From: an uncultured Gammaproteobacteria bacterium
GTDB lineage: Bacteria > Patescibacteriota > Microgenomatia > Daviesbacterales > UBA10151
Assembly (NCBI GenBank): GCA_964523905.1
Contig: CAZFYQ010000002.1
Coordinates: 66,177 to 130,176, forward strand
DNA: 64,000 bases
Direction: 5' to 3'
Shown here: piece after piece, positions 11,919 through 55,340 of the stretch
Numbering within the stretch: the first letter of the stretch is position 1
Layout: every line of letters starts with the position of its first letter
Notes under the pieces: generated by a model
Told to the model about the DNA's origin: nothing
The model's input: only the letters and a program-made list of their open reading frames with translations
Database searches by the model: none
Made by a program: the position numbers and the translations under genes

Positions 11919-11927
11919 TATTTGAAA

Positions 11928-21153: not shown

Positions 21154-21207
21154 TATTGGGGATTTGTTGGGCTTGCCTAGTGGGCTTTGGGGACGTACAA
21201 TAAGTAG

Positions 21208-36464: not shown

Positions 36465-37349
36465 ATGACAAAGATATCGGCTGTTGTAAATGCCTTTAAT
36501 GAGGAAAAAAACATTCAAATAGCCATTAAATCCGTAAAATGGGCTGCTGAAGTATTAGTGTGTGACATGGAATCTTCAGATAAGACGGTTAGTATTGCCA
36601 AAGCCTTAGGAGCTAAAGTAATTTCACATAAGAATATGGGTTTTGTTGAACCAGGGCGAAATTTCGCAATCGAGAAGGCTGCAGGGGATTGGATTTTAAT
36701 TTTAGATGCTGATGAAGAGATCCCGGAAACCTTGGCCAAACATTTGCAGCAGTTGGCTGATAAAAATCCGGAAATAAATTATGTTGAAATTCCCCGCAAA
36801 AATATTATCTTTAATAAATGGATTGAGCACACTGGTTGGTGGCCGGATACGCAGATCCGCTTTTTTAAAAAAGGTACTGTGACCTGGAAGGACCAAATTC
36901 ATAGTAAACCAGAAACTAAAGGCCTCGGTCTTACTCTGGAGCCAGAAGAACAGTGGGCCATTATTCACAGAAATTACCGCTCAATTTCTGATTACCTGGG
37001 GAAATTAAACCGTTATACAGATGTTCAGGCAAAAGAACTATTAGATACCGGTTATGAATTCAAAAAAGAAGATCTATGGAATAAACCACTTGCTGAATTT
37101 TTATCCCGTTATTTTGCAAATAATGGATACCATGATGGATTACATGGATTGGTTTTGAGTTTGCTGCAGGCGGTCTCTTTTTTGGTTTTGTATTTAAAAG
37201 TTTGGGAGAAAAAAGGATTTAGTCAACAGGATATCGAATTATCAGAGTTTAATGAGCAAACCAAAATTATTGGCAAAGATGTTGATTACTGGGTTAAGCA
37301 AATCAAAGGGGGATCTTTAAAGCAAATATTTAAGATTTTTAAAAAATGA
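36465..37349 (+). CDS. GT2 family glycosyltransferase.
   Basis: The N-terminus reads AVVNAFNEEKNI, followed by DMESSDKT and the DxD motif ILDADEEI. Confidence 0.65.
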   Translation: MTKISAVVNAFNEEKNIQIAIKSVKWAAEVLVCDMESSDKTVSIAKALGAKVISHKNMGFVEPGRNFAIEKAAGDWILILDADEEIPETLAKHLQQLADKNPEINYVEIPRKNIIFNKWIEHTGWWPDTQIRFFKKGTVTWKDQIHSKPETKGLGLTLEPEEQWAIIHRNYRSISDYLGKLNRYTDVQAKELLDTGYEFKKEDLWNKPLAEFLSRYFANNGYHDGLHGLVLSLLQAVSFLVLYLKVWEKKGFSQQDIELSEFNEQTKIIGKDVDYWVKQIKGGSLKQIFKIFKK

Positions 37350-38149
37350 TTAGTGTAATTATTATTGCTAAAAATGAGGAGCAAAGAATTAAGGTCTGTT
37401 TAGAATCTGTTAAATGGGCTGATGAAATAATTGTGTGTGCTAATGGTTCTACAGATCAGACAGTTGAGATTGCCAAAAAATATACTAAAAAAATTATCAG
37501 CTTTAAGGGTGAAGATTTTGCTGAGTGGAGAAATCAGGCTACCAAGGAAGCTACCGGAGACTGGATTCTATACATTGATCCGGATGAGCGGGTTACTGAA
37601 AAACTTAAATTAGAGATTTTACAAATTGTACAAACCGGGGATCGGGTTGCTTATGCAATTTCTCGGAAGAATTTTATTTTTGGTGAAAGAGTTACTTATG
37701 GACCATTTTGGCCGGATTGGGTCATTAGATTAATTAAACAAGATGCCCTAGAGGGTTGGTTTGGTAAAGTTCATGAACAGCCAAAATATCAAGGCAGGTT
37801 GGGTTATTTATCAGGATCATTAATACATTTGACTCATCGAAATCTAGACCAAATTGTTTTAAAAAGTTTGGAGTGGAGCAAAATTGATGCCAAATTAAGA
37901 CTAGACTCTCACCATCCAAAAATGTCCGGCTGGAGATTTCTACGGATTTTTATTAGCGAAACCTGGAATCAGGGAATTAAAAGAGGCGGTTTTTTTAACG
38001 GCACTGTTGGAGTAATGGATTCCTTGCTTCAGTCATTTAGTTTATTTATGACCTATGTTAGGTTGTGGGAAATGCAGCAGCAAAAATCCCGTGAAGAGAT
38101 TTACGATGAACTTGATCAAAAATTACTGGAAAGCCATTTTGAACTTTAA
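37346..38149 (+). CDS. GT2 family glycosyltransferase. It is a paralog of the preceding gene.
   Basis: IIIAKNEEQRI...ANGSTDQT...YIDPDERV. Its start overlaps the upstream stop (ATGA). Confidence 0.65.
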   Translation: MISVIIIAKNEEQRIKVCLESVKWADEIIVCANGSTDQTVEIAKKYTKKIISFKGEDFAEWRNQATKEATGDWILYIDPDERVTEKLKLEILQIVQTGDRVAYAISRKNFIFGERVTYGPFWPDWVIRLIKQDALEGWFGKVHEQPKYQGRLGYLSGSLIHLTHRNLDQIVLKSLEWSKIDAKLRLDSHHPKMSGWRFLRIFISETWNQGIKRGGFFNGTVGVMDSLLQSFSLFMTYVRLWEMQQQKSREEIYDELDQKLLESHFEL

Positions 38150-38161
38150 GGAAACATTATT

Positions 38162-39235
38162 TTGAAGGTAGCCATTTATTCTCCATATTTAGATACTTTG
38201 GGTGGGGGAGAGCGCTATATGATGAGTATTGCTGAGGTGCTTTCTAAGCCGGATATCAGAGTGGATGTTTTACTTGACGGCCATTTGTTTAAAATTGGTG
38301 CCGATTATTTAAAAAAGCAGTTAACGAAGCGCTTTGGGCTTAATTTATCAAGGGTTAATTTTCTTGCTGCCCCCATTGGAGGGGGCAGCAATTTTGTTTC
38401 GCGACATTTTTTTTTAAAAACTTATGACGTTTGTTTTTACCTAACTGATGGCAGTATTTTTTATCCTTCCAGCAAGAAGAACTTCTTGCATATTCAGTCT
38501 CCTCTGGTGGGACAACCAGCTAAAAGTACCTGGGGTAAGAAAAAATTGGCCGGATGGGATTTAATTATTTATAACTCCACTTTTACCAAACAAGCTGCAC
38601 AAAATTATTGGCCGATTAAATCAGAAGTAATCTATCCTCCGGTAGATACAGATGTTTTTAAACCATTAAAAAAAGAAAAAATTATTCTTAGTGTTGGCAG
38701 ATTTTTTGGTTTTCTAAAAGATAAAAAGCAGGAAATTTTAATTGATACCTTTATTAAAATACAAAAGCAACATAAGCTAACTGGTTGGAGCTTAGCTTTA
38801 GCCGGTTCTGCTAAAGAAGGAGACCTGGATTATTTAGATAATTTAAAGAAACAGGCCGGAAAATTCGAAGTAAAGTTTTTCCCTAATTTGGAGTATGATG
38901 AATTAATCAATCTCTACGGTAGATCAAGTATTTATTGGCACGGGGCGGGATACCAAGAAACTGATCCAACTAAAATGGAACATTTTGGGATTTCTACAGT
39001 GGAGGCCATGGCAGCTGGAGCTGTACCAGTAGTGATTGGTCTAGGTGGACAAGTAGAAATTGTTGAAAATGGTAAATCAGGACTACTGTGGAATAGTTTG
39101 GATCAGTTAGAGGAGGAGACCTTAAGAGTAGTTGAGGATGAAAAACTTTTTGCTAAATTGTCAAAGGCAGCCATTGAAAGAGCCAAGAATTTTAGTAAGG
39201 AAAAATTTAGAGAGAAAATTCTAAATCTTATATGA
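38162..39235 (+). CDS. GT4 family glycosyltransferase with a TTG start.
   Basis: It has the EX7E region FGISTVEAMAAGAVPVV. AAGGAA lies 10 nt upstream of the TTG. Confidence 0.6.
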   Translation: MKVAIYSPYLDTLGGGERYMMSIAEVLSKPDIRVDVLLDGHLFKIGADYLKKQLTKRFGLNLSRVNFLAAPIGGGSNFVSRHFFLKTYDVCFYLTDGSIFYPSSKKNFLHIQSPLVGQPAKSTWGKKKLAGWDLIIYNSTFTKQAAQNYWPIKSEVIYPPVDTDVFKPLKKEKIILSVGRFFGFLKDKKQEILIDTFIKIQKQHKLTGWSLALAGSAKEGDLDYLDNLKKQAGKFEVKFFPNLEYDELINLYGRSSIYWHGAGYQETDPTKMEHFGISTVEAMAAGAVPVVIGLGGQVEIVENGKSGLLWNSLDQLEEETLRVVEDEKLFAKLSKAAIERAKNFSKEKFREKILNLI

Positions 39236-40371
39236 ACAAAAAACTGTGGATTATTTTAATAATTGGCATTATTTTAAGAATTGTCCTGGCTGTTTCTACT
39301 TATCACCCGGATAGCTTAGCTTTTAAATTAGGAGGACAGTTAGTTGCCAAAGGCTTAATATTAAATCTATATGATTTTTCTGATTCTAATATTGCAGTTT
39401 TAAATTATCCCCCTGTGATTTATTGGTTTCACGGAATTTTTCAACTCTTACTTGCCAGTTTTATTCCGGCAATTTTGGCTGTGAAATTACCATATTTACT
39501 GTTTGATATAGGACTGGCATTTATTCTGCTAAATTTATTTCCCAATCAAAAACAAGGCAATCTAGCTTTTAGTTTATGGATGTTTAATCCGTTAACTTTA
39601 TATGCCAGTTACATGATGGGACAATTTGATGTAATTCCCACTTTTTTTACAGTTCTTTCTATTTATTATATTGCTAAGGGTAAACTGGATGCTGCTGCGC
39701 TGGCCTTGGGCGGAGGAATTGCCTTTAAAATTTATCCGATTTTTTTACTAATCCCACTGATATTTTTAGGAAAAGATTACTGGCAAAAGATCAAACTTCT
39801 TTTCATAGGTATGGCTCCATATCTTTTATCTATTTTGATTTATTTACCATCACACAGTTTTAGAAGTATTGCTTTATTTGCTGCCCAAAGCTCAAAAAGT
39901 TTATATGCGGCCATCCCGGTTTCTGGTGGAGAATCAATCTTACTATTTCCATTGGCTTTACTAGTTTTTTACTTAATTCTTTGGCAAAGAAAAGTCAGTC
40001 TAAATAATTTCTGGAAGATTTATTCAATCCCTTTGTTTTTCTTTTTTATATTCACACATTATCACCCCCAATGGTTAATCTGGATTACTCCGTTTTTAAT
40101 TATTGGTTTAGTAATAGAGTGGAAAGTAACAATTCTTCCAGTGATGATTATTTTGCTTAGTTGGTTAGCATCACTTTTTTTCTTTGACCCTTCATTAACT
40201 TTAGGAATTTTTTCCCCGGTAATTTTTACATCAAAGGATGCTTTAAGTATCTGGAGTTATTTGCATCTTAATCCGGATTACAACTTTTCTCGCAGTGTAA
40301 TACAGACCGTGTTTACTGGTGGTCTACTTTATCTGATATATGAATACTTCCCCCGATTTTCTAATGAATAA
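39232..40371 (+). CDS. DUF2029/GT87-like polytopic membrane protein.
   Basis: WMFNPLTLYASYMMGQFDVIPTFFTVLSIYYIAKGK...IAFKIYPIFLLIPL. Confidence 0.4.
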   Translation: MNKKLWIILIIGIILRIVLAVSTYHPDSLAFKLGGQLVAKGLILNLYDFSDSNIAVLNYPPVIYWFHGIFQLLLASFIPAILAVKLPYLLFDIGLAFILLNLFPNQKQGNLAFSLWMFNPLTLYASYMMGQFDVIPTFFTVLSIYYIAKGKLDAAALALGGGIAFKIYPIFLLIPLIFLGKDYWQKIKLLFIGMAPYLLSILIYLPSHSFRSIALFAAQSSKSLYAAIPVSGGESILLFPLALLVFYLILWQRKVSLNNFWKIYSIPLFFFFIFTHYHPQWLIWITPFLIIGLVIEWKVTILPVMIILLSWLASLFFFDPSLTLGIFSPVIFTSKDALSIWSYLHLNPDYNFSRSVIQTVFTGGLLYLIYEYFPRFSNE

Positions 40372-41845
40372 GTTATCGATATTTTTCCTAGTTTTTTTAA
40401 TTGCCGGCTGGTATTTTTTTAGTTACAGAATTACCGATGTACCTCCGGGAATAAATGGAGATGAAGCGGCAATTGGTTACAATGCGGCTCTGGTTTCCAA
40501 AACTGGCCATGATTCATCCGGACGTTTCTTACCATTATTTATTTCAGCCTTTGATTTAACTGATTGGAAGCAACCCGTGACGTTTTATTCAACAGTGTTA
40601 GCATTTAAGTTATTTGGAACCACTTATGAGATGTTAAGGCAAGTTAGTGTGGTTTTTGTATTGATTTCAGCGGCATTAGTGTTTTTTTTGTCTCGAGAAA
40701 TTTTTGGCAAAAAACTTGCCTTTGTTAGTTTAGGACTTTTTCTAACAATTCCTGCCATATTAATTCAATCCCATCTTGCCTTAGAGAATATTGCTCCTGT
40801 GCCAATTACCATTTTGTGGTTACTAATGTTGGTTAAATATCTAAAATCTAGCAAAGCTAGATTTTTGTATTTATCTGGTTTATTTTTAGGCATTGATTTA
40901 TTTACCTATCCAGGACTTCGGATTATTTTTCCGGTTTACTTTTGTTTATCACTAGGGTTAATTTTTTACTTACAAAAAAAGAGGGATTTTAAATATGTAA
41001 TACCAAAATGGTTTAAGTTTGCAGTGGTTGCTTTAATTTTTCCGGCGATTATGTGGTCAGTAAAAAATCAATATCCAGGTGCGATACTTGCTTATAACCG
41101 GCCACATTCTTTGCCTTCTTATCAAAATTTTTTCCTGTCATATATTTCCTCTTATGACCCCTCATTTTTATTTATTAATGGAGATTCCACCCCTTACCAT
41201 TCTACTGGCAAGCAAGGAGTATTTTTACTTTCCACACTACCCTTATTCATCTTAGGACTAATCTGGATTATTCGAAAAAAGGATGTCATGTTATGGTTTG
41301 TCCTACTTGTTTTTTTCTTAAGTCCTCTACTTTATGGATTGGCTGAAACAATACATAGGGGTAGCAGATTGCTCGTGATGTTGCCACCTTATGCTTTAAT
41401 CACAACAGCCGGAGTACTTTCTATAACTCAAATAAAAAAAAGAAAATGGGCAATGACTGTCTTGGGGATTTTAGTTTTATTAATTTCTCTAAATTATTTT
41501 GATTTCTTAAGAGATTATTATTTTGATTATCCTAAACGAGTGGAATCTCAATTTGCCAAGCCTTATCAATTGACCTTTGAAAAGGTTGCTATTTTAGCTA
41601 AAAGTAAGAACCTAAATCCTTATATTTGGCAGGATTTTGGAACTGAAAATAAAATAGCCATCGATTTCTTTAAGCAAGTAATGCCTGGTGATTTAAAAAG
41701 CTGGACTGAGAATGAAGTTATTCCTGCCCACAGTGTTATTATCGTTCCTGAGTATATTTTAAAAAACAGGCAGCAAGTACCCCAAGATAATAGTGGTTAT
41801 GGATTTGGCCTATTAATTAATAACTCTCAAAATGAAATTCGATAA
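40364..41845 (+). CDS. PMT/ArnT-like GT-C glycosyltransferase (tandem array member 1).
   Basis: INGDEAAIGYNAALVSKTGHDSSGRFLPLFI. Confidence 0.6.
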   Translation: MNKLSIFFLVFLIAGWYFFSYRITDVPPGINGDEAAIGYNAALVSKTGHDSSGRFLPLFISAFDLTDWKQPVTFYSTVLAFKLFGTTYEMLRQVSVVFVLISAALVFFLSREIFGKKLAFVSLGLFLTIPAILIQSHLALENIAPVPITILWLLMLVKYLKSSKARFLYLSGLFLGIDLFTYPGLRIIFPVYFCLSLGLIFYLQKKRDFKYVIPKWFKFAVVALIFPAIMWSVKNQYPGAILAYNRPHSLPSYQNFFLSYISSYDPSFLFINGDSTPYHSTGKQGVFLLSTLPLFILGLIWIIRKKDVMLWFVLLVFFLSPLLYGLAETIHRGSRLLVMLPPYALITTAGVLSITQIKKRKWAMTVLGILVLLISLNYFDFLRDYYFDYPKRVESQFAKPYQLTFEKVAILAKSKNLNPYIWQDFGTENKIAIDFFKQVMPGDLKSWTENEVIPAHSVIIVPEYILKNRQQVPQDNSGYGFGLLINNSQNEIR

Positions 41846-43394
41846 ACTACTAATTGCTTTACTATTACTGTCTCTTATTATTAGAGTTTTTCCACTGGGT
41901 TTTCCCAGTTTTACCAGTGATGAAGCCAGAATCGCAGTTCGCGGTCATGTTTTATCAACATTAGGTAAGGATGAACTGGGAAATTCTTTTCCATTATTTT
42001 TTAATTCATCAGCTGACTACCAATTTCCTGTGGTGCCATACCTAACTGCGGTAGGAGAGCTAGTATTTGGTAACAATGACTTTGGAGCTAGAATCCCGTT
42101 TATTTTAATTGGTACTATTTTAGTATTTTTAAGTTACAAAATTGCTGAATCATTTAACAGTGATCAATGGTTTAAGCTAGGCAGTGCATTTATTGTAGCC
42201 ACCAGTCCGGTTTTAATCTTTCTATCCAAAACACCAAATGAAATTATTGTTTTAACCAGTTTTTTTGCGCTGCTTTATTTATTGCTAATCAAACAAAAGA
42301 AATTTTGGATGATTGGTAGCGTGATGTTTTTAACTATACTAACATCCAAATTAGCATTATTTTTTCTAATCCCGTTTACTTGGCTGACTGTATACAAACA
42401 GAACAAAAAGTTAGTAATTCTGTCAGTTATTATTGTAGTTTTAGGGCTATTACTTTTTTTTACCAATGAGCAAGCCAAGAGAAGTTTTATGGAAAATAAT
42501 TTTTCATTGCTCTCTGATGTTACTGTTAAAAACGGTATTGATAAATTAAGGGGTGAGGGGCTTAAAGCCGGTTGGCCAAGTTTTGTTAATTTTATCTTGT
42601 TTAATAAGTCGCACTATTTAATCATTGGGTTTTTGCACTGGGTTTCGTATTTTAGTCCGGCATTATATGTTGGACAATTTGATTCATCAGGACTGGTTAA
42701 TTATTTTTTCCTGGGTGTTTGGGCCAAAATTTTAATTATTCCTTTTATAATTGGCCTGATACAACTGATTAGAAAACAAACTAACTTAAGATTTTTACTA
42801 GGGTATACACTTATTTTTACATTTCCGGCGTTATTTAATTATCCTAAATTTGATCCAGTGCTAATTGTTTTAAGTATTCCGTTTATAGCACTGGTTATTA
42901 CTTTCGGTTTACTAAAATTGAATAAATTATTTGCAATATTTGTTCTTTGTTTAGTAATTCTTGAGTTGTCTGTAAACATCTACAGCTTGACTCCGCAATA
43001 TAAAAATGCTCTAAATTTGCGGCCTAATTGGGTAAAGAGTTTAGTTTTAAGTATTGATCAAACTAGTAAATCAGAAAATACCTATGTGTCTGATGATATT
43101 GTCTCGGATATTGGTCCTTTCATGGAATGGTACACCAACTTTAATCCCAAAGATGGCTTTGAGCAAGTTAAATCGCCTTATAAATTTACTCAGTATAAAA
43201 TTGGTAAAGTTAAACTTTTGGGAGCTGGACAAATATTTACGACCTGCGGCAAAGAGCAGAAGCTGATTATTTATGCCAGTCCCAGGGATTTAAAGAAAAT
43301 AAAAAATGATTTCAAGCCGATAGTGGACGGCACTTTTTCAGACAGCAATGGTCAGATTAGACTATATCGGATTAATAATACCTGTATCAGATGA
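41832..43394 (+). CDS. PMT/ArnT-like GT-C glycosyltransferase (array member 2).
   Basis: FTSDEARIAVRGHVLSTLGKDELGNSFPLFF. Confidence 0.55.
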   Translation: MKFDKLLIALLLLSLIIRVFPLGFPSFTSDEARIAVRGHVLSTLGKDELGNSFPLFFNSSADYQFPVVPYLTAVGELVFGNNDFGARIPFILIGTILVFLSYKIAESFNSDQWFKLGSAFIVATSPVLIFLSKTPNEIIVLTSFFALLYLLLIKQKKFWMIGSVMFLTILTSKLALFFLIPFTWLTVYKQNKKLVILSVIIVVLGLLLFFTNEQAKRSFMENNFSLLSDVTVKNGIDKLRGEGLKAGWPSFVNFILFNKSHYLIIGFLHWVSYFSPALYVGQFDSSGLVNYFFLGVWAKILIIPFIIGLIQLIRKQTNLRFLLGYTLIFTFPALFNYPKFDPVLIVLSIPFIALVITFGLLKLNKLFAIFVLCLVILELSVNIYSLTPQYKNALNLRPNWVKSLVLSIDQTSKSENTYVSDDIVSDIGPFMEWYTNFNPKDGFEQVKSPYKFTQYKIGKVKLLGAGQIFTTCGKEQKLIIYASPRDLKKIKNDFKPIVDGTFSDSNGQIRLYRINNTCIR

Positions 43395-44998
43395 AAAAGA
43401 TTATCTTGTTAGTATTAATAGTTTTACTTAGTGCAGTCTTACGTTTTTGGGATTTAAGCAATTTTCCTATACAGTTGGATCATGATGAAGTAAGCCAGCT
43501 TTATGATACCCGATCAATAGTAGAAACTGGTAAGGATATTTACGGGAATTTTCTACCATTGGCTTTTCCTTCAACAGGGGATTATAAAGTAGGTCACTAT
43601 ATTTATATTTCAACTATCTTTTATCGAATATTTGGCATGAGAGAAGTTACGATTCGATTACCAGCTGCTTTTTTTGGTAGTTTAACCGTACTGGCAGTAT
43701 TTTTATTTGTCTTAGAGCTAACTGGTAATTGGTGGATCGCTTTAGCATCTAGCTTAATGGTAGCCATTACCCCGTCGGAGATTTTTTATTCTCGCAAAAG
43801 TTTTGAAAATGCCATTGGAGTCAGCTTAGATTTCTGGGGATTATTTTTATTGTTAAAGAGCTTAAAATCAAAAAAAACGACCTATTGGCTGCTAGGAGGT
43901 AGTTTGATACTAGCACTGGCAATGTATATTTATACTGCCCAAACAATTATTATTCCGCTATTAATTATTCTTTTTGCCTGGCTTTATCAAGGAAAAGAAA
44001 ATCTTTCTCGGAAAAATATTACTTTTTTAATTCTTTCCGGACTGATATTTATTGCTCCTCTTCTATATATTTCTGCCACTGATGCTGGGATTCGGTTTAG
44101 GGCTAGCTCGGTTTTTATTACTCAAGACCCCGATCTAGGTAGTCTAATTAATCTGACTCAAAATATCATAAAATCGTATCTGGATTTTGGTTTTAACAGA
44201 TACTTAAATCAATTTAACCCAATATACCTTTTTGCCAATGGATTGGATTTAACAGATCAGGGATTAATTGGGTCTGGGCCTTTATTACTTATTCAATTAC
44301 CATTTTTAATTCTGGGGATTCTGTTCCTTTTGCGATCAAAGAACTTAGGTAAGGCCGGTCAGTTGTTACTGGGAATAGTAATAATTGCGATTATTCCATC
44401 GAGCATTACTTTTGAGAAAGTTAGCCCGCATCGGGCAATGCTGGCTTTTTCCACAATGAGTATTATTTCCGGCTTTGGTTTGTACTGGTTTTATAATGTT
44501 TTACAAAAAGTAAAACCACCAGTCAAGTTGATAATTTTGTCGATAATTTCGCTAGCCTTTTTGTTAAACCTAATTTACTTTGTATTCATCTACTCAGTGG
44601 GTTATCCGTTTGAAAAATCGCATAAGCTGCAATATCCATTTAAACAAGTCGCGCAATTTGCCTGGTCTGAGTATCCTAACTTCAGTCAAATTATTTGGGA
44701 TCCCAAGTATGGAGATATTGCTCCAATTGTCGGTGTTGGCACTCATTACTATTTAGCCTATTATGGTAATTATTCACCAGTCCAATTTCAAAAAAAATAT
44801 CATACTGATTTGCGTGGTCAATATTTTGATAAATTTGCAATTCGCAATGTAATATGGGGAGGAGATAAGAATTTGAAAAACACATTATTAATTGTTAGCC
44901 CCTGGAGTGTGCCGGAAAATGAAGTGCCACAGAGTCTAATAATTAAAAAATTCTACTTCTATAATGGACAATTGGCGTTTTATGCCATTAAACTATAG
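43391..44998 (+). CDS. PMT/ArnT-like GT-C glycosyltransferase (array member 3).
   Basis: LDHDEVSQLYDTRSIVETGKDIYGNFLPLAF. Confidence 0.55.
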   Translation: MKKIILLVLIVLLSAVLRFWDLSNFPIQLDHDEVSQLYDTRSIVETGKDIYGNFLPLAFPSTGDYKVGHYIYISTIFYRIFGMREVTIRLPAAFFGSLTVLAVFLFVLELTGNWWIALASSLMVAITPSEIFYSRKSFENAIGVSLDFWGLFLLLKSLKSKKTTYWLLGGSLILALAMYIYTAQTIIIPLLIILFAWLYQGKENLSRKNITFLILSGLIFIAPLLYISATDAGIRFRASSVFITQDPDLGSLINLTQNIIKSYLDFGFNRYLNQFNPIYLFANGLDLTDQGLIGSGPLLLIQLPFLILGILFLLRSKNLGKAGQLLLGIVIIAIIPSSITFEKVSPHRAMLAFSTMSIISGFGLYWFYNVLQKVKPPVKLIILSIISLAFLLNLIYFVFIYSVGYPFEKSHKLQYPFKQVAQFAWSEYPNFSQIIWDPKYGDIAPIVGVGTHYYLAYYGNYSPVQFQKKYHTDLRGQYFDKFAIRNVIWGGDKNLKNTLLIVSPWSVPENEVPQSLIIKKFYFYNGQLAFYAIKL

Positions 44999-46654
44999 AT
45001 GATGAAATATAAGATTTACTTATCACTATTTTTGATTGTTATTGCTGCTTTCGCGCTTCGTTTTTACAAAGTAACTGAAATACCGCCTGCATTAAACTGG
45101 GATGAGGTGTCGATTGGTTATAATGCTTATTCAATTTTAAAAACCGGTAAAGATGAATGGGGGCAATTTCTTCCTGTTCATTTTAAAGCTTATGGCGAAT
45201 ATAAATTACCAGTGCAAATTTATGCTTCAATTCCGGCAATTGCCATATTTGGCTTAAACGAATTGGGTGTCAGAATTACCCCGGTGGTTTATGGAACTCT
45301 GACTGTGCTGATAACATTTTTTCTGGCAAGAGCTTTATTTCAAAGTGAGCTGCTAGGTCTAATCGCCGCTTTTTTACTAGCAATTTCTCCTTGGCATATT
45401 CAACTTACCCGAGCATCTTTTGAAAGTTCATTTTCTGTATTTTGGGTGGAGCTGGGGATATGGTTTCTAATTAAAGGGTTTTCTAATAAACGTTGGTTAA
45501 TTTTTTCGATGATACCATTTGCAATTTCGACATTTACCTATAATAGCACCCTGATATTTACTCCACTTTTTCTTTTTGTGATTTTGCTGGTGTTTCATAA
45601 GACCTTTATCAAAATGAAAAGAACAATTTTAATAGCGGCGATTATTTTTATGATTTTACTGCTTCCCGAAACCCCCTATTTATTAAGCGGCAATAGGAGC
45701 TCTCGGTATAAGCTGGTTAGTATTAGTGATGATGCCGGTCTGATACCCAGAATTAATCAAAACAGAGGAAACTCAAAGTTGCCACAACCCTTGCCAAGAC
45801 TGGTTCATAACAAGATAACTTATATTGCTTTTTATTTTACTGAAAATTATCTGGCGCATTTTACACCGCAATTTTTATTTATTAGTGGGGCACCTCATAA
45901 ACAGCACAATGTGCAAAATATGGGTGAATTATATTTATTCCAGGCACCTTTTTTGCTGCTAGGACTTTATCTGTTGTTTAAACGAAAAAATCGTCACCGC
46001 TATCTGCTGCTTTCCTGGATCTTACTGGTGAATGTTCCGGTGGCAACTACTAATGATAGTATCCCCAATGCCTTAAGAACTGCCATTGCCAACCCTTTTT
46101 ATCAACTAATTACTGCTCTGGGAATTTTGGAAATGATTAATTGGCTTAGAAATAAAAATATCTCTTTAAAAATTGGTGCTTTGGTGGTTTCGATTGTAAT
46201 TTTGGCTGTTAGCTTAAATTATTATTTCTATCAATATTATGTTGTTTATCCAGCAAGTTTCTCTAGGGATTGGCAGTATGGTTATAAACAAGTAGTAGAT
46301 TATATTGGTCAGCACCAAAATGACTACGATCTAGTGGTATTTAGCAGATACTACGGTGAGCCACATATGTTTACTCTATTTTTCTTAAACTATGATCCAG
46401 CTAAATACCAAAATAATCCCAATTTAGACCGCTTTGAAACATTTAATTGGGTGTGGGTACTCAAATTTGATAAATACTATTTTCCTGACCTAGGAGATCC
46501 TGGTACTCACTATGCCGATATTATTAAACAAAATCCTGGTAAAAAAATCTTATTTATCGGTAAACCAGGAGATTTCCCAGCTGATAAGCAAAAGCTGTTA
46601 ACGGTTGATTTCTTAAATGGAAATGAAGCCTTTGAGATAGTAGATTCTAAATAA
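44999..46654 (+). CDS. PMT/ArnT-like GT-C glycosyltransferase (array member 4).
   Basis: LNWDEVSIGYNAYSILKTGKDEWGQFLPVHF. It is nearly identical in this motif to 15409..17037. Confidence 0.6.
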   Translation: MMKYKIYLSLFLIVIAAFALRFYKVTEIPPALNWDEVSIGYNAYSILKTGKDEWGQFLPVHFKAYGEYKLPVQIYASIPAIAIFGLNELGVRITPVVYGTLTVLITFFLARALFQSELLGLIAAFLLAISPWHIQLTRASFESSFSVFWVELGIWFLIKGFSNKRWLIFSMIPFAISTFTYNSTLIFTPLFLFVILLVFHKTFIKMKRTILIAAIIFMILLLPETPYLLSGNRSSRYKLVSISDDAGLIPRINQNRGNSKLPQPLPRLVHNKITYIAFYFTENYLAHFTPQFLFISGAPHKQHNVQNMGELYLFQAPFLLLGLYLLFKRKNRHRYLLLSWILLVNVPVATTNDSIPNALRTAIANPFYQLITALGILEMINWLRNKNISLKIGALVVSIVILAVSLNYYFYQYYVVYPASFSRDWQYGYKQVVDYIGQHQNDYDLVVFSRYYGEPHMFTLFFLNYDPAKYQNNPNLDRFETFNWVWVLKFDKYYFPDLGDPGTHYADIIKQNPGKKILFIGKPGDFPADKQKLLTVDFLNGNEAFEIVDSK

Positions 46655-46655
46655 G

Positions 46656-47282
46656 ATGAAAATTTACGATGTGACAATGCCAATTTCAGAAGAAATGCTG
46701 GTTTGGCGAGGTGATGACCCTGTCTCTATTAAAGCAGTAGCAAGTGTTAAAGAAGACGGTGTAGCTGTATCCCAGCTTACCTTAAGTAGTCATACCGGCA
46801 CTCATGTAGATGCACCCAGTCATTTTCTAGAAAATAGTACCGGAGTTGACATTATTGATCCGGAAAAATTAATAGGGGACTGCATTGTGGTTGATTTAAC
46901 AGATATTGATCACCAGGAGATTACTGTTAAAGATCTGGAAAGCATTGATCTTACCTGTTTACGAGTTGTATTTAAAACCGGTAATTTTAAGTACTTAAAA
47001 CAAAATACTTTTCCTGATAAATATATCTCATTATCTGTTGAAGGAGCTAAATATCTAGTGGATAAAGGAATAGTTTTAGTAGGAACGGATTTTTTGGGAA
47101 TAGAAAAAGAGAAAAACCCTGGGCATCCTGTACATACAACACTGCTGGAGGCTGGAATTGTCAATGTTGAAGGATTAGACTTAAGCGAAGTGCCTGCTGG
47201 AGAGTATCAAATTATTTGTGCACCTCTTAAAATCAAAGACTGTGACGGCGCCCCATCCCGGGTCTTTTTAATTAAGAATTAA
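46656..47282 (+). CDS. Cyclase-family protein (kynurenine formamidase-like, PF04199-type).
   Basis: LSSHTGTHVDAPSHF is the His-rich metal-binding motif of the putative cyclase/arylformamidase family. It is 208 aa. Confidence 0.55.
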   Translation: MKIYDVTMPISEEMLVWRGDDPVSIKAVASVKEDGVAVSQLTLSSHTGTHVDAPSHFLENSTGVDIIDPEKLIGDCIVVDLTDIDHQEITVKDLESIDLTCLRVVFKTGNFKYLKQNTFPDKYISLSVEGAKYLVDKGIVLVGTDFLGIEKEKNPGHPVHTTLLEAGIVNVEGLDLSEVPAGEYQIICAPLKIKDCDGAPSRVFLIKN

Positions 47283-47308
47283 CCAGATCTTCATGCTATG
47301 ATTATGTT

Positions 47309-48709
47309 ATGGCTAAATCATGGCTATTTAGTACCAAAGGAATACTGGTTTTAATATGCGCGCTGTTTCTTTTTACCAGGCTGTATAAAATCGCTGAAAT
47401 TCCAGTTTCTGTGTACTGGGACGAGGCTTCCATTGGCTATAACGCCTATGCTATTTCTACTGATTTAAAGGATGAATGGGGCAAGATGTTACCAATCCAT
47501 TTTAGGGCCTTTGGCGAGTTTAAACTGCCGGTTTACATCTATTCAGTAGTGCCAGTTGTTAAGACATTTGGCTTAAATGCTTTTTCCGTTCGGTTTCCGG
47601 CAGTACTTTATTCCTTGGGATCAGTAATTTTAACTTTCTTTTTAGTTCGTAAACTTACTGCGAGTGAGGCAATTGGGCTATGGAGTAGTTTTTTACTTGG
47701 TATTTCTCCCTGGTTTTTTATTTTTTCCCGGACCGGCTATGAAGTTACAGCAGGATTGACGTTTTACCTACTGGGAATACTATTTTTCTTAAATATTAAG
47801 AAAAAAAACCGCTTTTTTCTATTTTCCACCGTTAGTTTTATTTTAAGTGCCTATAGTTATAATAGTTTTAGAATAATTGCCCCGCTGACGGTGAGCAGTC
47901 TATTTCTATTCAACTTAAATTATTTAAAACAACTATTGGCCAAGGGGAAATTATATTTGCTTCTCGCTATTATCTTAGTTATTGCTGCTATTATCCCAAT
48001 TTACAGGTTATATAAATATGATGCTGGAGGTGTACGACTTTCGACAATTGGTGGTGAATCTACGCAGCAAATGGTAAAAAATTATCTGTCTCATTTTAAT
48101 CCGCAATTTCTTTTTATTCAGGGGGATAAAAACCTAAGGTCCCAGCAAGCTAATTTTGGTCAGTTGTTCTTTCCGGATCTAGTTTTATTGCCTTTAGGTC
48201 TGGTGTATTTACTAAGGTCAAGAATAAAATACAAATGGTTAATATTTTCTCTAATCTTACTTGGCCCAATTCCAGCAGCAATTACTAAAGAATCGCCCCA
48301 TGCCTTGCGGTCTCTGTCCATGGTACCTTTTTTGCATTTAGTTTCCGCCTGCGGGATCCTTTATTTGATGCAAATCTCTAGTAAAAGGCTGAGCGCTTTC
48401 CTTTTCATCAGTTTGTTTTTAGTATTATTTGGCAATTATTTTTACAACTTCTTAACTGTCTATCCCAAGCAGTCCGCCAAAGATTGGCAATACTCATATA
48501 AACAGATTTTTACAGGATCGTTAAAGCCGTACGAACAAAATGGTAAGTTTGTTATTTCTGACAAAGAAGCTCAGCCATATATTTTTGGTTTGTTTTATTT
48601 AAAATACAATCCGGTTCAATTTCGTCAAGAGGTAGTGCGTAATCCAGTTAATAATTGGGGATTTTCCACAGTAAAAGAATTTGGCAATTTTCAATTTACA
48701 AATCAATGA
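47309..48709 (+). CDS. PMT/ArnT-like GT-C glycosyltransferase (array member 5).
   Basis: VYWDEASIGYNAYAISTDLKDEWGKMLPIHF. Confidence 0.55.
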   Translation: MAKSWLFSTKGILVLICALFLFTRLYKIAEIPVSVYWDEASIGYNAYAISTDLKDEWGKMLPIHFRAFGEFKLPVYIYSVVPVVKTFGLNAFSVRFPAVLYSLGSVILTFFLVRKLTASEAIGLWSSFLLGISPWFFIFSRTGYEVTAGLTFYLLGILFFLNIKKKNRFFLFSTVSFILSAYSYNSFRIIAPLTVSSLFLFNLNYLKQLLAKGKLYLLLAIILVIAAIIPIYRLYKYDAGGVRLSTIGGESTQQMVKNYLSHFNPQFLFIQGDKNLRSQQANFGQLFFPDLVLLPLGLVYLLRSRIKYKWLIFSLILLGPIPAAITKESPHALRSLSMVPFLHLVSACGILYLMQISSKRLSAFLFISLFLVLFGNYFYNFLTVYPKQSAKDWQYSYKQIFTGSLKPYEQNGKFVISDKEAQPYIFGLFYLKYNPVQFRQEVVRNPVNNWGFSTVKEFGNFQFTNQ

Positions 48710-50301
48710 GCAATTTAACAAAAATTTTACTGGGTTTAATTATCATCTTGTCCTTGGTCCTTAGAGTGTACAAGATAGATTCAGTGCCTCCTTCAATTTC
48801 TTGGGATGAAGCAGCTGTTGGATATAACGCCTGGACTATTGCCAACTACGGGCGCGATGAATACGGAAAATTTTTGCCCTTATATTTTCGCTCTTTTGGA
48901 GAAGATAAAAACCCAGTTGATATTTATATCACCGCAATTTTTGTCAAGACAATGGGCTTAAATGAATTAAGTATTAGGTTGCCCTCAGTCTTATTTGGAG
49001 TGTTAGATGTATTGATGATTTTCTTTTTGGCTAGAATACTTTTCAAGAATGATCAGGTTGGTTTAATTGCTGCATTATTTTTGGCTATCTCACCTTACAA
49101 TTTACATTTCTCACATTTTAATCACGAAGCAAATCTGGCTTTGTTTTTCTTTATGCTAGGAGTTAGCTTATTTATATTGGGTCTTAAAAAAAGCAGTTGG
49201 ATGCTTTCATTTTCCATGATCAGTTTTTGTTTGGCTTTTATCTCCTATAACCCTCCGAAGCTAATTGTACCATTGGTGATATTAATGTTGGTGTGTGTTT
49301 ATGCCAAGCAGTTAATAAAAAGTCCGAAGAAATTAATTGCCCCAGTAGTTATTTTAGTTTTATTCATTACTCTAATTTTCTTTAATCAAAATTTGCTGGC
49401 TGGTAACCGTATTAGTCAGACGATTCAGGGTAACGCTGATATTGAAAAAACCCAGTTGTTTAAAATGACTCACAATGAGTTGTTAGGTCGGGTGAATTTA
49501 GCGCTAACTCAATATAGTTGGCATTTTACGCCAAAATTTTTGTTTATTTCCGGTGATAAAAATCCAGTTCTATCATCTCAATCGAACGGAGAATTCTACT
49601 TAATTGATGGTTTATTCCTGATTTCGGGTGTAGTATTTTTGGTCTGGAAAAGAAGTCGTGAAGGCTTATTATTGTTAGGTATTGCTCTGATTGCTCCACT
49701 ACCGTCTGCTTTAACAGCAGAAGCACCACATGCTGGAAGAGCAATGTTTATGATGGGTAGCTGGAATTTAATTTCTGCATTTGGATCATATTCTTTGCTA
49801 GGACTTTTTAAAAAACTGCAGATTAAATGGGTAATTATGGGAATTACCGTGGTAATTCTTAGTTTTTCTCTAAAAAATTATCTGACCTATTATTACGTAG
49901 AGTATGCGAAAAGATATGCGATTGATTGGCAGTATGGAATGAAGCAGATCGTAAGTTATGTAAAAGCTCATCCAGAGTACGCTCAGGTTTATATGACTGA
50001 TGCTCGTTCCCAGCCCTATATCTTTTTCTTATACTACCTTCAAACTCCATTACCGGAATATTTAAACAGCGTAATATATAATAACAACAAAGAGTCAAAC
50101 AGTTTTAGTAATGTGACAACTTTTGGACGTTTCTATTTTGAGGGCTGGGATCCGATTGAGAGTACGCCGCAAAGAGATGTGTTGTATATCGTTACCCCCA
50201 GTCAATATGATGGGTTAAGACATAAAGCTGTATTTAAGGTAGAAAAAAAGATTGATTATCCAAATGGTTTGGATGCTTTTTATCTGGTGGGAATAAATTA
50301 A
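48706..50301 (+). CDS. PMT/ArnT-like GT-C glycosyltransferase (array member 6).
   Basis: ISWDEAAVGYNAWTIANYGRDEYGKFLPLYF. The ATG at 48706 overlaps the upstream TGA. Confidence 0.55.
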   Translation: MSNLTKILLGLIIILSLVLRVYKIDSVPPSISWDEAAVGYNAWTIANYGRDEYGKFLPLYFRSFGEDKNPVDIYITAIFVKTMGLNELSIRLPSVLFGVLDVLMIFFLARILFKNDQVGLIAALFLAISPYNLHFSHFNHEANLALFFFMLGVSLFILGLKKSSWMLSFSMISFCLAFISYNPPKLIVPLVILMLVCVYAKQLIKSPKKLIAPVVILVLFITLIFFNQNLLAGNRISQTIQGNADIEKTQLFKMTHNELLGRVNLALTQYSWHFTPKFLFISGDKNPVLSSQSNGEFYLIDGLFLISGVVFLVWKRSREGLLLLGIALIAPLPSALTAEAPHAGRAMFMMGSWNLISAFGSYSLLGLFKKLQIKWVIMGITVVILSFSLKNYLTYYYVEYAKRYAIDWQYGMKQIVSYVKAHPEYAQVYMTDARSQPYIFFLYYLQTPLPEYLNSVIYNNNKESNSFSNVTTFGRFYFEGWDPIESTPQRDVLYIVTPSQYDGLRHKAVFKVEKKIDYPNGLDAFYLVGIN

Positions 50302-50303
50302 CA

Positions 50304-51074
50304 ATGAAATTATCAGTTGTTTTAGCAGTTTATAATGAAGAGGAAAATCTAAAGAGCTGTTTAGACTCAGTTAAGGATTTAGCAAACGAAATTATTATCG
50401 TTGACGGAGGCTCAACAGATAAAACAATAGAAATTGCTAAGGGTTTTAAGGCCAAAGTGATTGAAACAACTAATCCAGCGGTTTTCCATATTAACAAAAA
50501 CAAAGCAATTGATGCTGCAACTGGTGATTGGATTTTACAACTGGATGCTGATGAGCAAGTTAGTCAAGAATTAGCAGAGGAAATAGGGAAAGTCATTTCA
50601 GAAACGACAGATATTAATGGTTACTGGATTCCCCGAAGAAACTTTTTTTTGGGAAGATTTTTAACAAAAGGCGGACAATATCCGGATTACACTTTGCGTC
50701 TTTATAAAAAGGGAAAGGGCCGGTTACCAGCCAAAGATGTTCATGAGCAGGCAGAAGTGGAAGGAAAGGTGGGTTATCTTAAAAATGACCTGTTACATAT
50801 ACGGGATAAGAATTTCTCAATTTATTTAGAAAGATTTAATCGCTATACCAGTTTAATCGCAGATCAGTTAAAGGATGCTAAAGTAACTGTTAATCCAATT
50901 TCTTTTCTAGATTATATTTTTATTAAACCATTGTACTGGTTTCTAAAAGTTTACTTCCGCAATCGAGCGTATGTTGATGGTTTCCCGGGATTTGTGTTTG
51001 TGTTATTTTCTTCTTTAAGATTTCCAATTGCCTATTTAAAATTGTGGAGTAAATATAATGAAAATAGCGATTAA
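50304..51074 (+). CDS. GT2 family glycosyltransferase.
   Basis: VVLAVYNEEENL...VDGGSTDKT...QLDADEQV. Confidence 0.65.
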   Translation: MKLSVVLAVYNEEENLKSCLDSVKDLANEIIIVDGGSTDKTIEIAKGFKAKVIETTNPAVFHINKNKAIDAATGDWILQLDADEQVSQELAEEIGKVISETTDINGYWIPRRNFFLGRFLTKGGQYPDYTLRLYKKGKGRLPAKDVHEQAEVEGKVGYLKNDLLHIRDKNFSIYLERFNRYTSLIADQLKDAKVTVNPISFLDYIFIKPLYWFLKVYFRNRAYVDGFPGFVFVLFSSLRFPIAYLKLWSKYNENSD

Positions 51075-52128
51075 CACCTTACCTCTTAAAACTGGGCATA
51101 AAGATCGAGGGATTGGTAATTATACTGCTAACTTAATTGAAGCTTTAAAATCAGAGGGGAAAATTGAGATAATTGAGTTTACGAATTTGTCACAAATTAA
51201 AGATGCAGATTTAGTGCATTATCCTTGGTTTGACTTTTACTACCATACGCTTCCAATCAAAAAACCTTTTCCTACCGTTGTTACAATTCATGATGTAATT
51301 CCCCTTAAATTTAAAGAACATTTTCCAACTGGTGTAAAAGCCAGATTTAGCTTAGGTTTACAAAAATTAGCATTATCTTCTGTAAAACAAATCCTGACTG
51401 ATTCTAATGTTTCTAAAAAAGATATTACGGATTTATTAGGTATAAAGCAAGACAAAATTTCTGTTGTGCATTTATCAGTTGGTGAAGATTTTAAACAGTT
51501 AACAAATACTGAAAGCTTATTTGCTAAAAGAAAATATCAGCTGCCTGATCGGTATTTATTATACGTAGGAGATGCTAATTGGACAAAAAATATCCCCTTT
51601 TTAATTGAAAGTTTTAATGAATTAGTTAAAAATGACGAATTTAAGGATGTAAAGTTAGTTTTGATTGGCGGAGTGTTCTTAAAAAAAGTGGAAAATATTA
51701 ATCACCGTGAACTGGAAAGTTTAAAATTAGTTAACCGGTTAATTGAACAATACAGGTTGACTGATCAAATAATACGACCTGGCAATATCGAAACAAAAGA
51801 TTTGGTCGCTTTTTATAATCTGGCTACCATTTACATACAACCATCAATCTATGAAGGCTTTGGATTGCCAATCATTGAGGCAATGGCTTGTGGAGCCCCT
51901 GTGGTTTCATCAAATGGAGGTAGCTTGGTGGAAGTAGGGGGGCAAGCTCCGGTTTATTTTAATCCAACAAATAGCCAGCAGGTGTTTACTCTTATTAAAG
52001 AAATACTTGCAAGTAAGTCATTGCAAAACAAATTGTCTGAGCTGGGATTAAAAAGAGCTCAACAATTCTCTCCTCTGCAATTTGCCAGCGAAATGATTAA
52101 AATTTATTCTCAAATAATTAATTCATGA
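51058..52128 (+). CDS. GT4 family glycosyltransferase.
   Basis: EGFGLPIIEAMACGAPVVSSNGGSLVEV. Confidence 0.65.
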   Translation: MKIAINTLPLKTGHKDRGIGNYTANLIEALKSEGKIEIIEFTNLSQIKDADLVHYPWFDFYYHTLPIKKPFPTVVTIHDVIPLKFKEHFPTGVKARFSLGLQKLALSSVKQILTDSNVSKKDITDLLGIKQDKISVVHLSVGEDFKQLTNTESLFAKRKYQLPDRYLLYVGDANWTKNIPFLIESFNELVKNDEFKDVKLVLIGGVFLKKVENINHRELESLKLVNRLIEQYRLTDQIIRPGNIETKDLVAFYNLATIYIQPSIYEGFGLPIIEAMACGAPVVSSNGGSLVEVGGQAPVYFNPTNSQQVFTLIKEILASKSLQNKLSELGLKRAQQFSPLQFASEMIKIYSQIINS

Positions 52129-53282
52129 AACTGATTAGAAAATCTGATGTATTAACAATCTCGGTACTATTTATTGCATGGCGGATATATTTAATGATAG
52201 TGGCTTTTTTTGCCGGTAAATTTTTGCCTTTGGCTCAGACAGATAAATTACTCGGAGGTGGGCCAATTAATTTTCCAATTGCCCCACAAGTTTTTTCTTG
52301 GGCCAATTTTGATGGAGAGCATTATTTATCAATTGCCATATTTGGCTATAAAAGTTTAGAACAAGCTTTTTTTCCGGTTTACCCAATGTTAATTTCTTTT
52401 TTTTCTAAACCGTTTTGGGGAAATCAGTTTGCAACCATCTTATCCGCCACAATTATTGGACTGCTAATATCAAACGCGGCTTTTTTGATTGCGCTAATTT
52501 TTTTATACAAATTAATTTGTTTGGAGTTTTCTAAAAGAATCGCCTTTATGTCGATAGTCCTACTACTTATTTTTCCCACATCATTTTTCTTTGGAGCTGT
52601 ATACAGCGAGTCACTTTTTTTACTATTTTCGGTTTTATGTTTTTACCTTGTCAGGAAAGAAAATTATTGGTTAGCCGGTTTTTTTGGAATGTTAGCTGCT
52701 GCAACTAGGATTTTCGGAATTTTATTACTCCCAGCTATATTAATTGATGTAATTAGGCAAAAAGAGAGCCTCTTGAAATCTTTGGGAGTTTTTCTAATTC
52801 CAATTGGTTTAGGCATATATATGTGGTATCAATACGTTACAGTAGGGGATGCCTTGGCTTTTTATCATTTACAGCAAATAGTAGGACCACAGCATCAAAG
52901 CGGTTTAGTAACCTTACCTCAGGTTTATTATCGCTACGGGAAAATGCTCATCACTGTAGATAGTGGTAATACGATTTATCAAACTATCTTATTGGAATTT
53001 TTTGTTGGAATTTCTTTTTTCCTACTACCTATATATGGATTTTTTAAAAAAATTAGGTGGTCATATCTTTTTTATGCAATGGTAGGCTTCATTGCTCCCA
53101 CCATTCAGGGAAGTTTTTCCTCAACTCCTCGGTATGTAATTGTATTGTTTCCAGCGTTTATTGCCATGGCATTTTTTTTAAATAAGTGGTCCAAATTATC
53201 AAAAACTCTTTTTTTTCTTTCTTTAGTTTTTCTACTGACGCTTGAAACAACATTATTTATTAGAGGATACTGGGTAGCATGA
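52125..53282 (+). CDS. Polytopic membrane protein, putative GT-C mannosyltransferase-like. It is related to 17034..18200.
   Basis: It is 385 aa with about 10 TM helices and the motif AATRIFGILLLPAILIDV. Confidence 0.35.
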   Translation: MKLIRKSDVLTISVLFIAWRIYLMIVAFFAGKFLPLAQTDKLLGGGPINFPIAPQVFSWANFDGEHYLSIAIFGYKSLEQAFFPVYPMLISFFSKPFWGNQFATILSATIIGLLISNAAFLIALIFLYKLICLEFSKRIAFMSIVLLLIFPTSFFFGAVYSESLFLLFSVLCFYLVRKENYWLAGFFGMLAAATRIFGILLLPAILIDVIRQKESLLKSLGVFLIPIGLGIYMWYQYVTVGDALAFYHLQQIVGPQHQSGLVTLPQVYYRYGKMLITVDSGNTIYQTILLEFFVGISFFLLPIYGFFKKIRWSYLFYAMVGFIAPTIQGSFSSTPRYVIVLFPAFIAMAFFLNKWSKLSKTLFFLSLVFLLTLETTLFIRGYWVA

Positions 53283-55330: not shown

Positions 55331-55340
55331 AATTTCCCCT

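Follow-up and report, generated by a model that had tools for sequence, protein, structure and literature searches.

The window analysed here is a 64,000-nucleotide stretch of contig CAZFYQ010000002.1 (assembly GCA_964523905.1, positions 66,177 to 130,176), which belongs to Candidatus Daviesbacteria, a lineage of the Microgenomatia within the candidate phyla radiation (CPR). It contains about 35% G+C, and envelope-glycan genes, mostly on the plus strand, fill it densely from approximately 9.3 kb onwards. Within this locus of about 50 kb lies an array of genes for polytopic membrane proteins that, on sequence evidence, belong to the PMT_2-type family of C-fold glycosyltransferases (GT-C), are ancient and are kept in a fixed order.

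The array comprises six plus-strand genes, here labelled C1 (40364..41845, 493 amino acids), C2 (41832..43394, 520 amino acids), C3 (43391..44998, 535 amino acids), C4 (44999..46654, 551 amino acids), C5 (47309..48709, 466 amino acids, with a short C-terminal domain) and C6 (48706..50301, 531 amino acids). Two more copies, C7 (15409..17037, 542 amino acids) and C8 (30882..32504, 540 amino acids), are located elsewhere on the same strand. The packing of the array is operon-like, with overlapping stop and start codons, as in the ATGA shared by C5 and C6. All six open reading frames (ORFs) were borne out. The longest-ORF starts for C1 and C6 are 40340 and 48655, and the starts proposed in a first-pass annotation of this stretch, 40364 and 48706, coincide exactly with the NCBI gene calls. 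The latter are preferred because they produce ATGA-type overlaps with the upstream genes and match an independent gene call.

The genes had been described as consecutive. Their reading frames are as described, but strict adjacency fails between the fourth and fifth, where an unrelated plus-strand gene (46656..47282) encodes a 208-amino acid cyclase/arylformamidase-like protein (PF04199, 87.9 bits; TIGR03035, 126.9 bits against a cut-off of 223). No such gene occupies this position in the other loci examined, including that of a relative (L085) whose C4 is 82% identical and which carries the six GT-C genes without it. The operon is otherwise fixed, and the gene seems to have been inserted recently; it stands outside the glycosylation system.

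Ten proteins of the window, namely C1-C8, the C-terminal part of the 18226 product and the 21208 product, had been proposed to be GT-C enzymes related to PMT and ArnT. Each one exceeds the gathering cut-off of the PMT_2 model (PF13231; 27.5-60.4 against 26.1 bits), with scores in that order of 38.3, 31.8, 44.3, 37.4, 27.5, 60.4, 39.3, 39.6, 48.1 and 44.0 bits. The PMT model (PF02366) is passed by seven of the ten, marginally (23-41 bits; for example, 23.4 for C3, 27.6 for C5, 36.5 for C7 and 41 for the 18226 product). Hydropathy plots reveal 6-11 hydrophobic peaks in every copy, in line with polytopic GT-C proteins, which have 7-13 transmembrane helices and a long external loop behind the first of them. 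Fold searches return only GT-C enzymes, and there is three-dimensional similarity to solved members of this class.

A loop-1 motif, DE..GYNA....G.DE.G..LP, had been attributed to all copies. Its DE dyad is invariant in a ten-way alignment, but the full motif is not in every copy: it is found in C4, C5, C6 and C7, is nearly whole in C1, is degraded in C2, C3 and C8, and is reduced to DE alone in the 18226 and 21208 proteins. The dyad corresponds to residues 33-34 in C1 and to D35/E36 in C4. An AlphaFold model of C4 has its first transmembrane helix at residues 2-22, external loop 1 helices at 34-49 and 71-84, and further transmembrane helices to about residue 420. The helix after the first transmembrane segment has D35/E36 at its start, which places the motif in loop 1 as claimed. 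Acidic residues in external loop 1, as expected for the GT-C_A class, are present in every orthogroup.

A profile of the ten proteins, when compared with the PDB, matches ArnT (5ezm) at an E value of 5.6e-8, STT3 at 8e-4 and Pmt4 at 4e-3. In the ArnT alignment, the family DE falls on D55/E56, and K69 (C4 numbering), the lysine of a [DE]-[YF]-K-x-P string, aligns with the lysine of ArnT FEKPP, K85. The ArnT numbers used here (D55/E56, E84/K85) allow for a 3-residue offset in the chain. D55/E56 of ArnT and D77/E78 of Pmt1 form an active-site dyad in the loop between the first two transmembrane helices, and K85 of ArnT contacts the phosphate of the lipid carrier (PMC7801869). Both features of the ArnT family (GT83), the loop-1 aspartate and the phosphate-binding lysine, are therefore found in the profile alignment. 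The proposed assignment to PMT/ArnT-like GT-C enzymes is supported by these data, because the proteins match PF13231/PF02366 and the motif maps to loop 1. Taken alone, we consider the GT-C assignment to be very nearly certain.

More specific assignments find no such agreement. The Pmt equivalog model (NF058602) is matched by C4 only, at 20.3 bits against a cut-off of 800, and no ArnT equivalog is present among the NCBIfam matches. The best NCBIfam match for nine of the ten proteins is Agl23 (TIGR03663), an archaeal protein associated with flippase activity, yet its scores of 16.8-51.8 bits are far below the cut-off of 126.25. ArnT itself (undecaprenyl-phosphate-L-Ara4N:lipid A transferase; 5ezm/5f15) is 11% identical to the window family in a structural alignment and is encoded by one gene, whereas the window holds at least 11 paralogs. 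The context also differs from that of ArnT. ArnC-like family 2 glycosyltransferases (GT2) in the window are distant (25-68 bits against a cut-off of 529), ArnB and ArnD have no match among the window ORFs scanned, and the ArnA model yields only a partial match to a short-chain dehydrogenase/reductase domain at 58522 (55.5 against 777 bits). Lipid A is improbable as the acceptor, given the Gram-positive-like envelope of this group of CPR bacteria. By these profile scores, the proteins are a divergent PMT_2 subfamily that is closer to ArnT than to PMT and orthologous to neither. Use of a lipid-phosphate-linked donor on the non-cytoplasmic side of the membrane has indirect support from the lysine equivalent to K85, from synthase-like GT2s nearby and from a GT2-GT-C fusion, and would be expected of such enzymes.

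The count of ten copies held in that all ten pass PMT_2, but the total was too low. An 11th paralog, m14 (14294..15412, plus strand), precedes C7. Its PMT_2 score of 17 bits is below the cut-off, and its homology is established by hhalign (99.4% probability, E 5.5e-21). Its alignment with C4 covers residues 96-385 (profile columns 99-388), and it lacks both the DE loop and the C-terminal domain. It could be a non-catalytic partner subunit. Together with C7 and a gene at 13113, m14 forms a plus-strand module (13113..17037) in which the 13113 product is a GT2 fused to a GtrA-like membrane domain (PF00535 and PF04138, GtrA_DPMS_TM). A 388-amino acid membrane protein encoded on the minus strand just beyond C7 (17034-18200) has a faint match to the PIG-V-like protein of the downstream block (52125, described below).

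Eight of the ten proteins constitute one mutually recognizable BLAST family, with 22-37% identity over their full length, and the C-terminal domain of the 18226 protein and the 21208 protein form a more distant PMT_2 branch. The 18226 gene (18226..20358, plus strand) encodes an N-terminal GT2 domain (PF00535, 108.8 bits) joined to a C-terminal PMT_2 GT-C domain whose DE (residues 265-266) follows a first transmembrane helix at about residue 236. The best NCBIfam matches of its GT2 half are PgfS, PgaC/IcaA, AglJ, ArnC and PpgS. This fusion is retained at 59-72% identity in the best 120 clusters, all with PF00535 and PF13231, and by the 'Rosetta stone' argument it supports a coupling of donor synthesis to transfer. 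It is followed on the same strand (20431..22719) by a polyprenyl-phosphate-sugar-synthase-like GT2 (20431) and the distant GT-C encoded at 21208 (C10). Seven further GT-C-like membrane proteins are encoded near the PMT_2 copies, and altogether about 18 GT-C-like proteins are found within 50 kb.

The array recurs in other genomes. One genome per species was scanned, and the 80 loci recovered belong to Daviesbacteria, Woesebacteria, Shapirobacteria and other Microgenomates; counts are given out of 81, and gene orders are labelled by best match to window genes. Homologs of the C4 protein carry the names Candidatus Daviesbacteria or Microgenomates. Many records of metagenome-assembled genomes with the locus (L006-L084) are titled 'uncultured Gammaproteobacteria bacterium isolate binchicken_...', which is an evident taxonomic mislabel.

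The conserved core begins with C4 and continues into a plus-strand downstream block (50304..56462) composed of a GT2 (50304), a family 4 glycosyltransferase (GT4; 51058), a PIG-V-like GT-C (52125), a Wzx/MOP flippase (53279), a polyprenyl-phosphate-sugar-synthase-like GT2 (54524) and a GT4 (55341). C4 and C5 are adjacent in 66/81 loci, C5 and C6 in 63/81, C6 and the 50304 GT2 in 67/81, and this GT2 and its GT4 neighbour in 64/81. Most loci have the order C4-C5-C6-GT2-GT4-PIG-V-like, often followed by the flippase and the 54524 GT2, and the order of the downstream block (C6-2c-4b-pigV-wzx2-2d) is conserved. C4 is the best-conserved copy (orthologs 49-84% identical, in many genomes) and anchors this core, and C2 is the fastest-evolving and most divergent (orthologs 39-50% identical).

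Upstream of the core, two arrangements can be distinguished. Daviesbacteria-type loci are marked by C1-C3 and a GT2-GT2-GT4 block, which in the window (36465..40371, plus strand) consists of GT2 genes at 36465 and 37346, a GT4 gene at 38162 and a polytopic membrane protein gene at 39232. The order of this block and C1 (2a-2b-4a-g87b-C1) recurs among Daviesbacteria loci, and C1 is found in 24/81 loci. In Woesebacteria-type loci, the genes that occupy 30882-36382 in the window are instead located directly upstream of C4. These genes encode C8, a GT87-like protein, a small protein and a second type of GT-C-fold protein, here named X34. X34 and C8 are adjacent in 34 loci, and C8 and C4 in 18. The small protein (33763-34440, plus strand; 225 amino acids) matches no family and has a hydrophobic segment at its N terminus; in 27 loci its gene is kept with the GT87-like gene on one side and X34 on the other.

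One Daviesbacteria locus (L003) illustrates the correspondence. It has the order GT2, GT2, GT4, membrane protein and six GT-Cs, followed by GT2, GT4, PIG-V-like, Wzx, GT2, GT4 and an epimerase. Position by position, each window copy finds its best match in the corresponding L003 GT-C, with 39-66% identity, and second-best matches have 24-35%. Every copy has positional orthologs in Daviesbacteria, and several also have them in Woesebacteria and Shapirobacteria. In a distance-based neighbour-joining tree of 118 sequences, the copies form separate clades with bootstrap values of 100 (C1), 91 (C2), 100 (C3), 96 (C4), 77 (C5), 74 (C6) and 100 (C8). Members of one clade share 42-60% identity on average, against 19-28% for members of different clades, and at least two further clades have no member in the window.

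Because each copy represents a separate clade with positional orthologs across these lineages, the diversification is ancient: the duplications predate the split of Daviesbacteria, Woesebacteria and Shapirobacteria, and the copies have been retained since. A recent tandem expansion, as might generate antigenic or phage-escape variation, is ruled out by one-to-one positional orthologs that are 39-71% identical, against 22-37% between copies. The first-pass annotation had proposed diversification of acceptor or sugar specificity after serial tandem duplication. Diversification after duplication fits, each copy being a separate conserved orthogroup, but the array is not a recent local expansion. 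C4, C5 and C6 are both adjacent and related, which is compatible with tandem duplication. The same is not obvious for C3, whose nearest relative in the window is the distant C7 (229 bits by BLAST; also its neighbour in the tree, at 40% bootstrap) and not an array neighbour.

The pattern of conservation suggests that the copies share one catalytic core. DE, D52, K/Q/R69, R92 and E142 are retained in every orthogroup, and all ten copies look catalytically competent on this criterion. The same residues rule out catalytically dead copies among the ten, and only m14 might be one. External loop 1 has the highest share both of universally conserved positions (13.8%) and of group-specific ones (16.9%), and the C-terminal external domain has zero universally conserved positions. 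This pattern may reflect separate donor or acceptor specificities on a common core.

Several other groups of genes complete the locus. A plus-strand sugar-supply block (9354..12938) encodes long-form RmlA, RmlB, RmlC and a Gmd-like dehydratase. RmlA and RmlB exceed their NCBIfam cut-offs (TIGR01208, 322.1 against 320.25; TIGR01181, 447.9 against 365.1), PF00908 is matched within the block, and Fcl-like enzymes are also present among the nucleotide-sugar genes. Two plus-strand genes (22676-24346 and 24615-26051) encode a PTPS_related-type GT-C-like pair (PF10131, 58.6 bits; 214-222 bits between the two), and the first barely passes PMT_2 (26.2 bits). A plus-strand MOP/Wzx flippase gene (26023) follows, in a block that ends at 27480; an NF007773 match in the 22676..27480 block scores 156.6 bits, below the cut-off of 273. 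The GT87/PIG-U-like membrane proteins encoded at 32504-33766 and 39232-40371 (both plus strand) are paralogs (113-118 bits).

The GT2s of the locus fall into two subgroups. The synthase-like GT2s are encoded at 13113, 18226 (N-terminal domain), 20431, 54524, 59673 and 63230, and the second subgroup comprises those at 36465, 37346 and 50304. GT4 genes are located at 38162, 51058, 55341 and 61313. The predicted parts of a multi-component glycosylation system, a synthase-type GT2, a flippase of the GtrA or Wzx type and a GT-C, are thus co-located in the window. No priming phosphoglycosyltransferase (WecA/MraY-like or WbaP-like) is present among the ORFs scanned in the island at 9354-63955, even though the island has two Wzx flippases and numerous GT2 and GT4 genes. 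The initiating enzyme, if any, must be encoded elsewhere.

X34 (34397-36382, minus strand) and X27 (27473..30895, plus strand; 1140 amino acids) represent a GT-C family that is not annotated in Pfam. The C-terminal half of X27 is a paralog of X34 (32% identity over 665 amino acids), and its N-terminal half is of unknown fold. Neither protein has a Pfam match, even at an E value of 10, and the best 120 of 599 X34 homologs also lack any Pfam domain; a few have names, which label them as hypothetical. Profile comparison of X34 with the C family gives a probability of 69.6% (E 4e-5), and an AlphaFold model of X34 is confident (predicted local distance difference test, pLDDT, 88.1; predicted template modelling score, pTM, 0.91). 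In the model, X34 is a GT-C-fold protein whose C-terminal domain gives it an oligosaccharyltransferase-like arrangement, and a role in oligosaccharide transfer is putative. A W-x-W-[FS]-D-[TS]-x-Y segment after the last transmembrane helix loosely resembles the WWDYG motif and is not retained in X27. No sequence link to STT3, PglB or AglB was found in Pfam (E up to 10) or in PDB profile searches with the whole protein or its C-terminal domain. A YfhO-annotated gene upstream of the L003 array was considered as an ortholog of X34 and was rejected, because BLASTP shows no similarity.

The combination of a GT2 synthase, a flippase and a GT-C is an established pattern of multi-component transmembrane glycosylation (PMC8035078, PMC11127046), and a scheme for the locus can be drawn on that basis. 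Nucleotide sugars would be made in the cytoplasm by RmlA, RmlB and RmlC and by the Gmd-like and Fcl-like dehydratases and epimerases. The GT2s that resemble ArnC, PgfS and dolichyl-phosphate-hexose synthases, for which the synthase-like enzymes listed above (13113, the 18226 N-terminal domain, 20431, 54524, 59673 and 63230) are candidates, would place single sugars on polyprenyl phosphate. These would be flipped outward by the GtrA-like domain of the 13113 protein, by the MOP/Wzx proteins (26023 and 53279), or by both. At the outer face, each GT-C paralog would pass one lipid-borne sugar to a growing surface glycan. In the chemistry envisaged, the loop-1 aspartate (D35 of C4) acts on the acceptor hydroxyl or binds a metal ion, and K69 may hold the lipid phosphate. 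The paralogs would work in series, each making a different linkage, and would then resemble the mycobacterial Emb, Aft and Mpt enzymes, or ALG3, ALG9, ALG12, ALG6, ALG8 and ALG10 in the lumen of the endoplasmic reticulum. A different linkage for each copy is suggested by the separate orthogroups, which differ most in the group-specific positions of loop 1 and in the C-terminal domain. The analysis establishes the family and fold of these proteins, where their catalytic residues lie and that they are conserved, the orthology and synteny of the copies and the GT2-GT-C fusion; the lipid-linked donors, the serial action, the single linkage per copy and the acceptor are inferred. We assign a probability of roughly 0.6 to the joint reading that these proteins are GT-C enzymes of this family and act serially on one surface glycan, with one linkage per copy.

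Several observations weigh against this serial reading. The literature searched yielded nothing on these genes, and no biochemical or glycan-structure data for Microgenomatia. No GT2 or GT-C comes near the cut-off of a named NCBIfam equivalog, and therefore the donor sugars cannot be named. Approximately six synthase-like GT2s face at least 11 PMT_2-type GT-Cs, so a simple model of one synthase per GT-C fails. The missing priming transferase leaves the source of any lipid-linked acceptor unexplained. The deep branches of the tree are weak (60% bootstrap for C5+C6, 40% for C3+C7), and sequence alone does not distinguish serial action on one polymer from action in parallel on several polymers or proteins.

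Parallel action would take the form of decoration, in which each GT-C terminates its own multi-component system and adds side-chain sugars to a different pre-made polymer or site. Lactococcus CsdAB/CD/EF and Listeria GtlB/YfhO function like this, and the targets here might be polymers of the teichoic acid type, wall polysaccharide or lipoglycan. The characterized PMT_2-type proteins GtlB and GttB are side-chain decorators paired with a GT2 (PMC8035078). The window has comparable pairs and fusions in 13113-m14-C7, in the 18226 fusion and in 20431-C10, and the accessory copies C1-C3, C7 and C8 vary in presence between genomes, as decorating enzymes would. One-to-one pairing of each copy with a GT2 had been suggested as a check, and adjacency counts give no support to it, although some pairs are fixed: C6 with the 50304 GT2, m14 with C7 (9/81 loci), C3 with a following GT2 (12 of the 27 C3-bearing loci among the 81) and the 18226 fusion. 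In the conserved triad, on the other hand, C4, C5 and C6 adjoin one another in the 66 and 63 loci noted above with no synthase-like GT2 in between, the 50304 GT2 fixed after C6 belongs to a SunS/MftF-like subgroup and not to the ArnC/PgfS-like one, and synthase-like GT2s are outnumbered by GT-Cs. Parallel decoration is judged unlikely.

A pathway like that of lipid-linked oligosaccharides in eukaryotes and archaea is more doubtful still. Here a GT4 or GT2 would start the oligosaccharide in the cytoplasm, Wzx would flip it, 8-11 GT-C paralogs would extend it in the manner of ALG3, ALG9 and ALG12, and X34 or X27 would transfer it en bloc to protein or to the wall. Two MOP flippases and several GT4s are available in the locus, the GT-C model of X34 is confident, and X34 and C8 are directly upstream of C4-C5-C6 in Woesebacteria-type loci. 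However, the sequence searches described above do not connect X34 with STT3, PglB or AglB, its WxW[FS]D segment is only a loose counterpart of WWDYG and is not kept in X27, and the priming transferase that such a pathway would call for was not found among the window ORFs scanned.

Protein O-glycosylation, in which each copy would modify serine or threonine of secreted or surface proteins such as S-layer proteins or pilins with its own substrate or sugar, is quite improbable: seven of the ten proteins do pass PF02366 and NCBI names the orthologs 'glycosyltransferase family 39 protein', but the family profile fits ArnT far better than Pmt4 (E 5.6e-8 against 0.004), the Pmt equivalog is matched at 20 against 800 bits, bacteria that O-mannosylate proteins have, to our knowledge, a single Pmt, and the Wzx flippases and the GT4 and GT2 Leloir enzymes of the locus are typical of polymer or oligosaccharide assembly.

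Several characterized systems can be compared with the locus on which the serial reading is based. Pmt proteins (GT39; Pmt1, Pmt2, Pmt4 and bacterial Pmt) differ in that their profile match to the window family is weak and the context in the window is of the polysaccharide type. The GtrA-GtrB-Gtr*, CsbB-GtcA-YfhO, GtlA-GtcA-GtlB and GacI/J-GacK-GacL systems have a parts list in common with the window (PMC8035078, PMC11127046). Each of them uses one GT-C, with one to few systems per genome, whereas the window has 11 PMT_2-type and about seven other GT-C-like proteins, a fixed C4-C6 triad and a GT2-GT-C fusion. The mycobacterial enzymes embC-embA-embB, AftA-D, MptA-C and PimE belong to GT53, GT85, GT87 and other families and not to PMT_2, the carbohydrate-binding domains of Emb are not found in the window family, and the window comes from a CPR bacterium whose genome is about 1 Mb. 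Tandem GT-C paralogs have a precedent in embCAB.

Upstream of the glycan genes, the window encodes a release factor, FtsE/FtsX (3618-5170, minus strand), two PcsB/M23-like hydrolases and a CAP-domain protein. Two paralogous coiled-coil proteins next to FtsEX (1123-2388 and 2388-3608, both minus strand) are 52% identical over their N-terminal 224 amino acids. One has an M23 peptidase match, and the C39-like and PcsB coiled-coil matches of the other fall below threshold. The layout resembles that of the FtsEX-PcsB cell-division hydrolase system.

The enzyme type described here is already well known, and NCBI already assigns the orthologs to family 39, so the finding as it was first stated is unsurprising. 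Our literature search for expanded GT-C or PMT families in CPR, Patescibacteria or Daviesbacteria found nothing relevant, and Meheust 2019 contains no mention of these families. The class-wide conservation of the array and the density of GT-C-like proteins (about 18 within 50 kb, where the whole genome is about 1 Mb) appear to be undescribed in the literature searched. The analysis yields a set of orthogroups (C1-C8), predicted catalytic residues, a fusion that joins donor synthesis to transfer, and a candidate unannotated transferase family.

Like other CPR bacteria, Daviesbacteria are ultra-small, have not been cultured and are believed to live attached to other cells. If the reading modelled on lipid-linked oligosaccharides were true, that pathway would take up about 50 kb of the roughly 1-Mb genome and might underlie the surface that these episymbionts show to their hosts. 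More generally, the retention by Microgenomatia of an operon-like, fixed set of GT-C genes points to a complex and conserved surface glycan, assembled outside the cytoplasm, as a trait central to the group.

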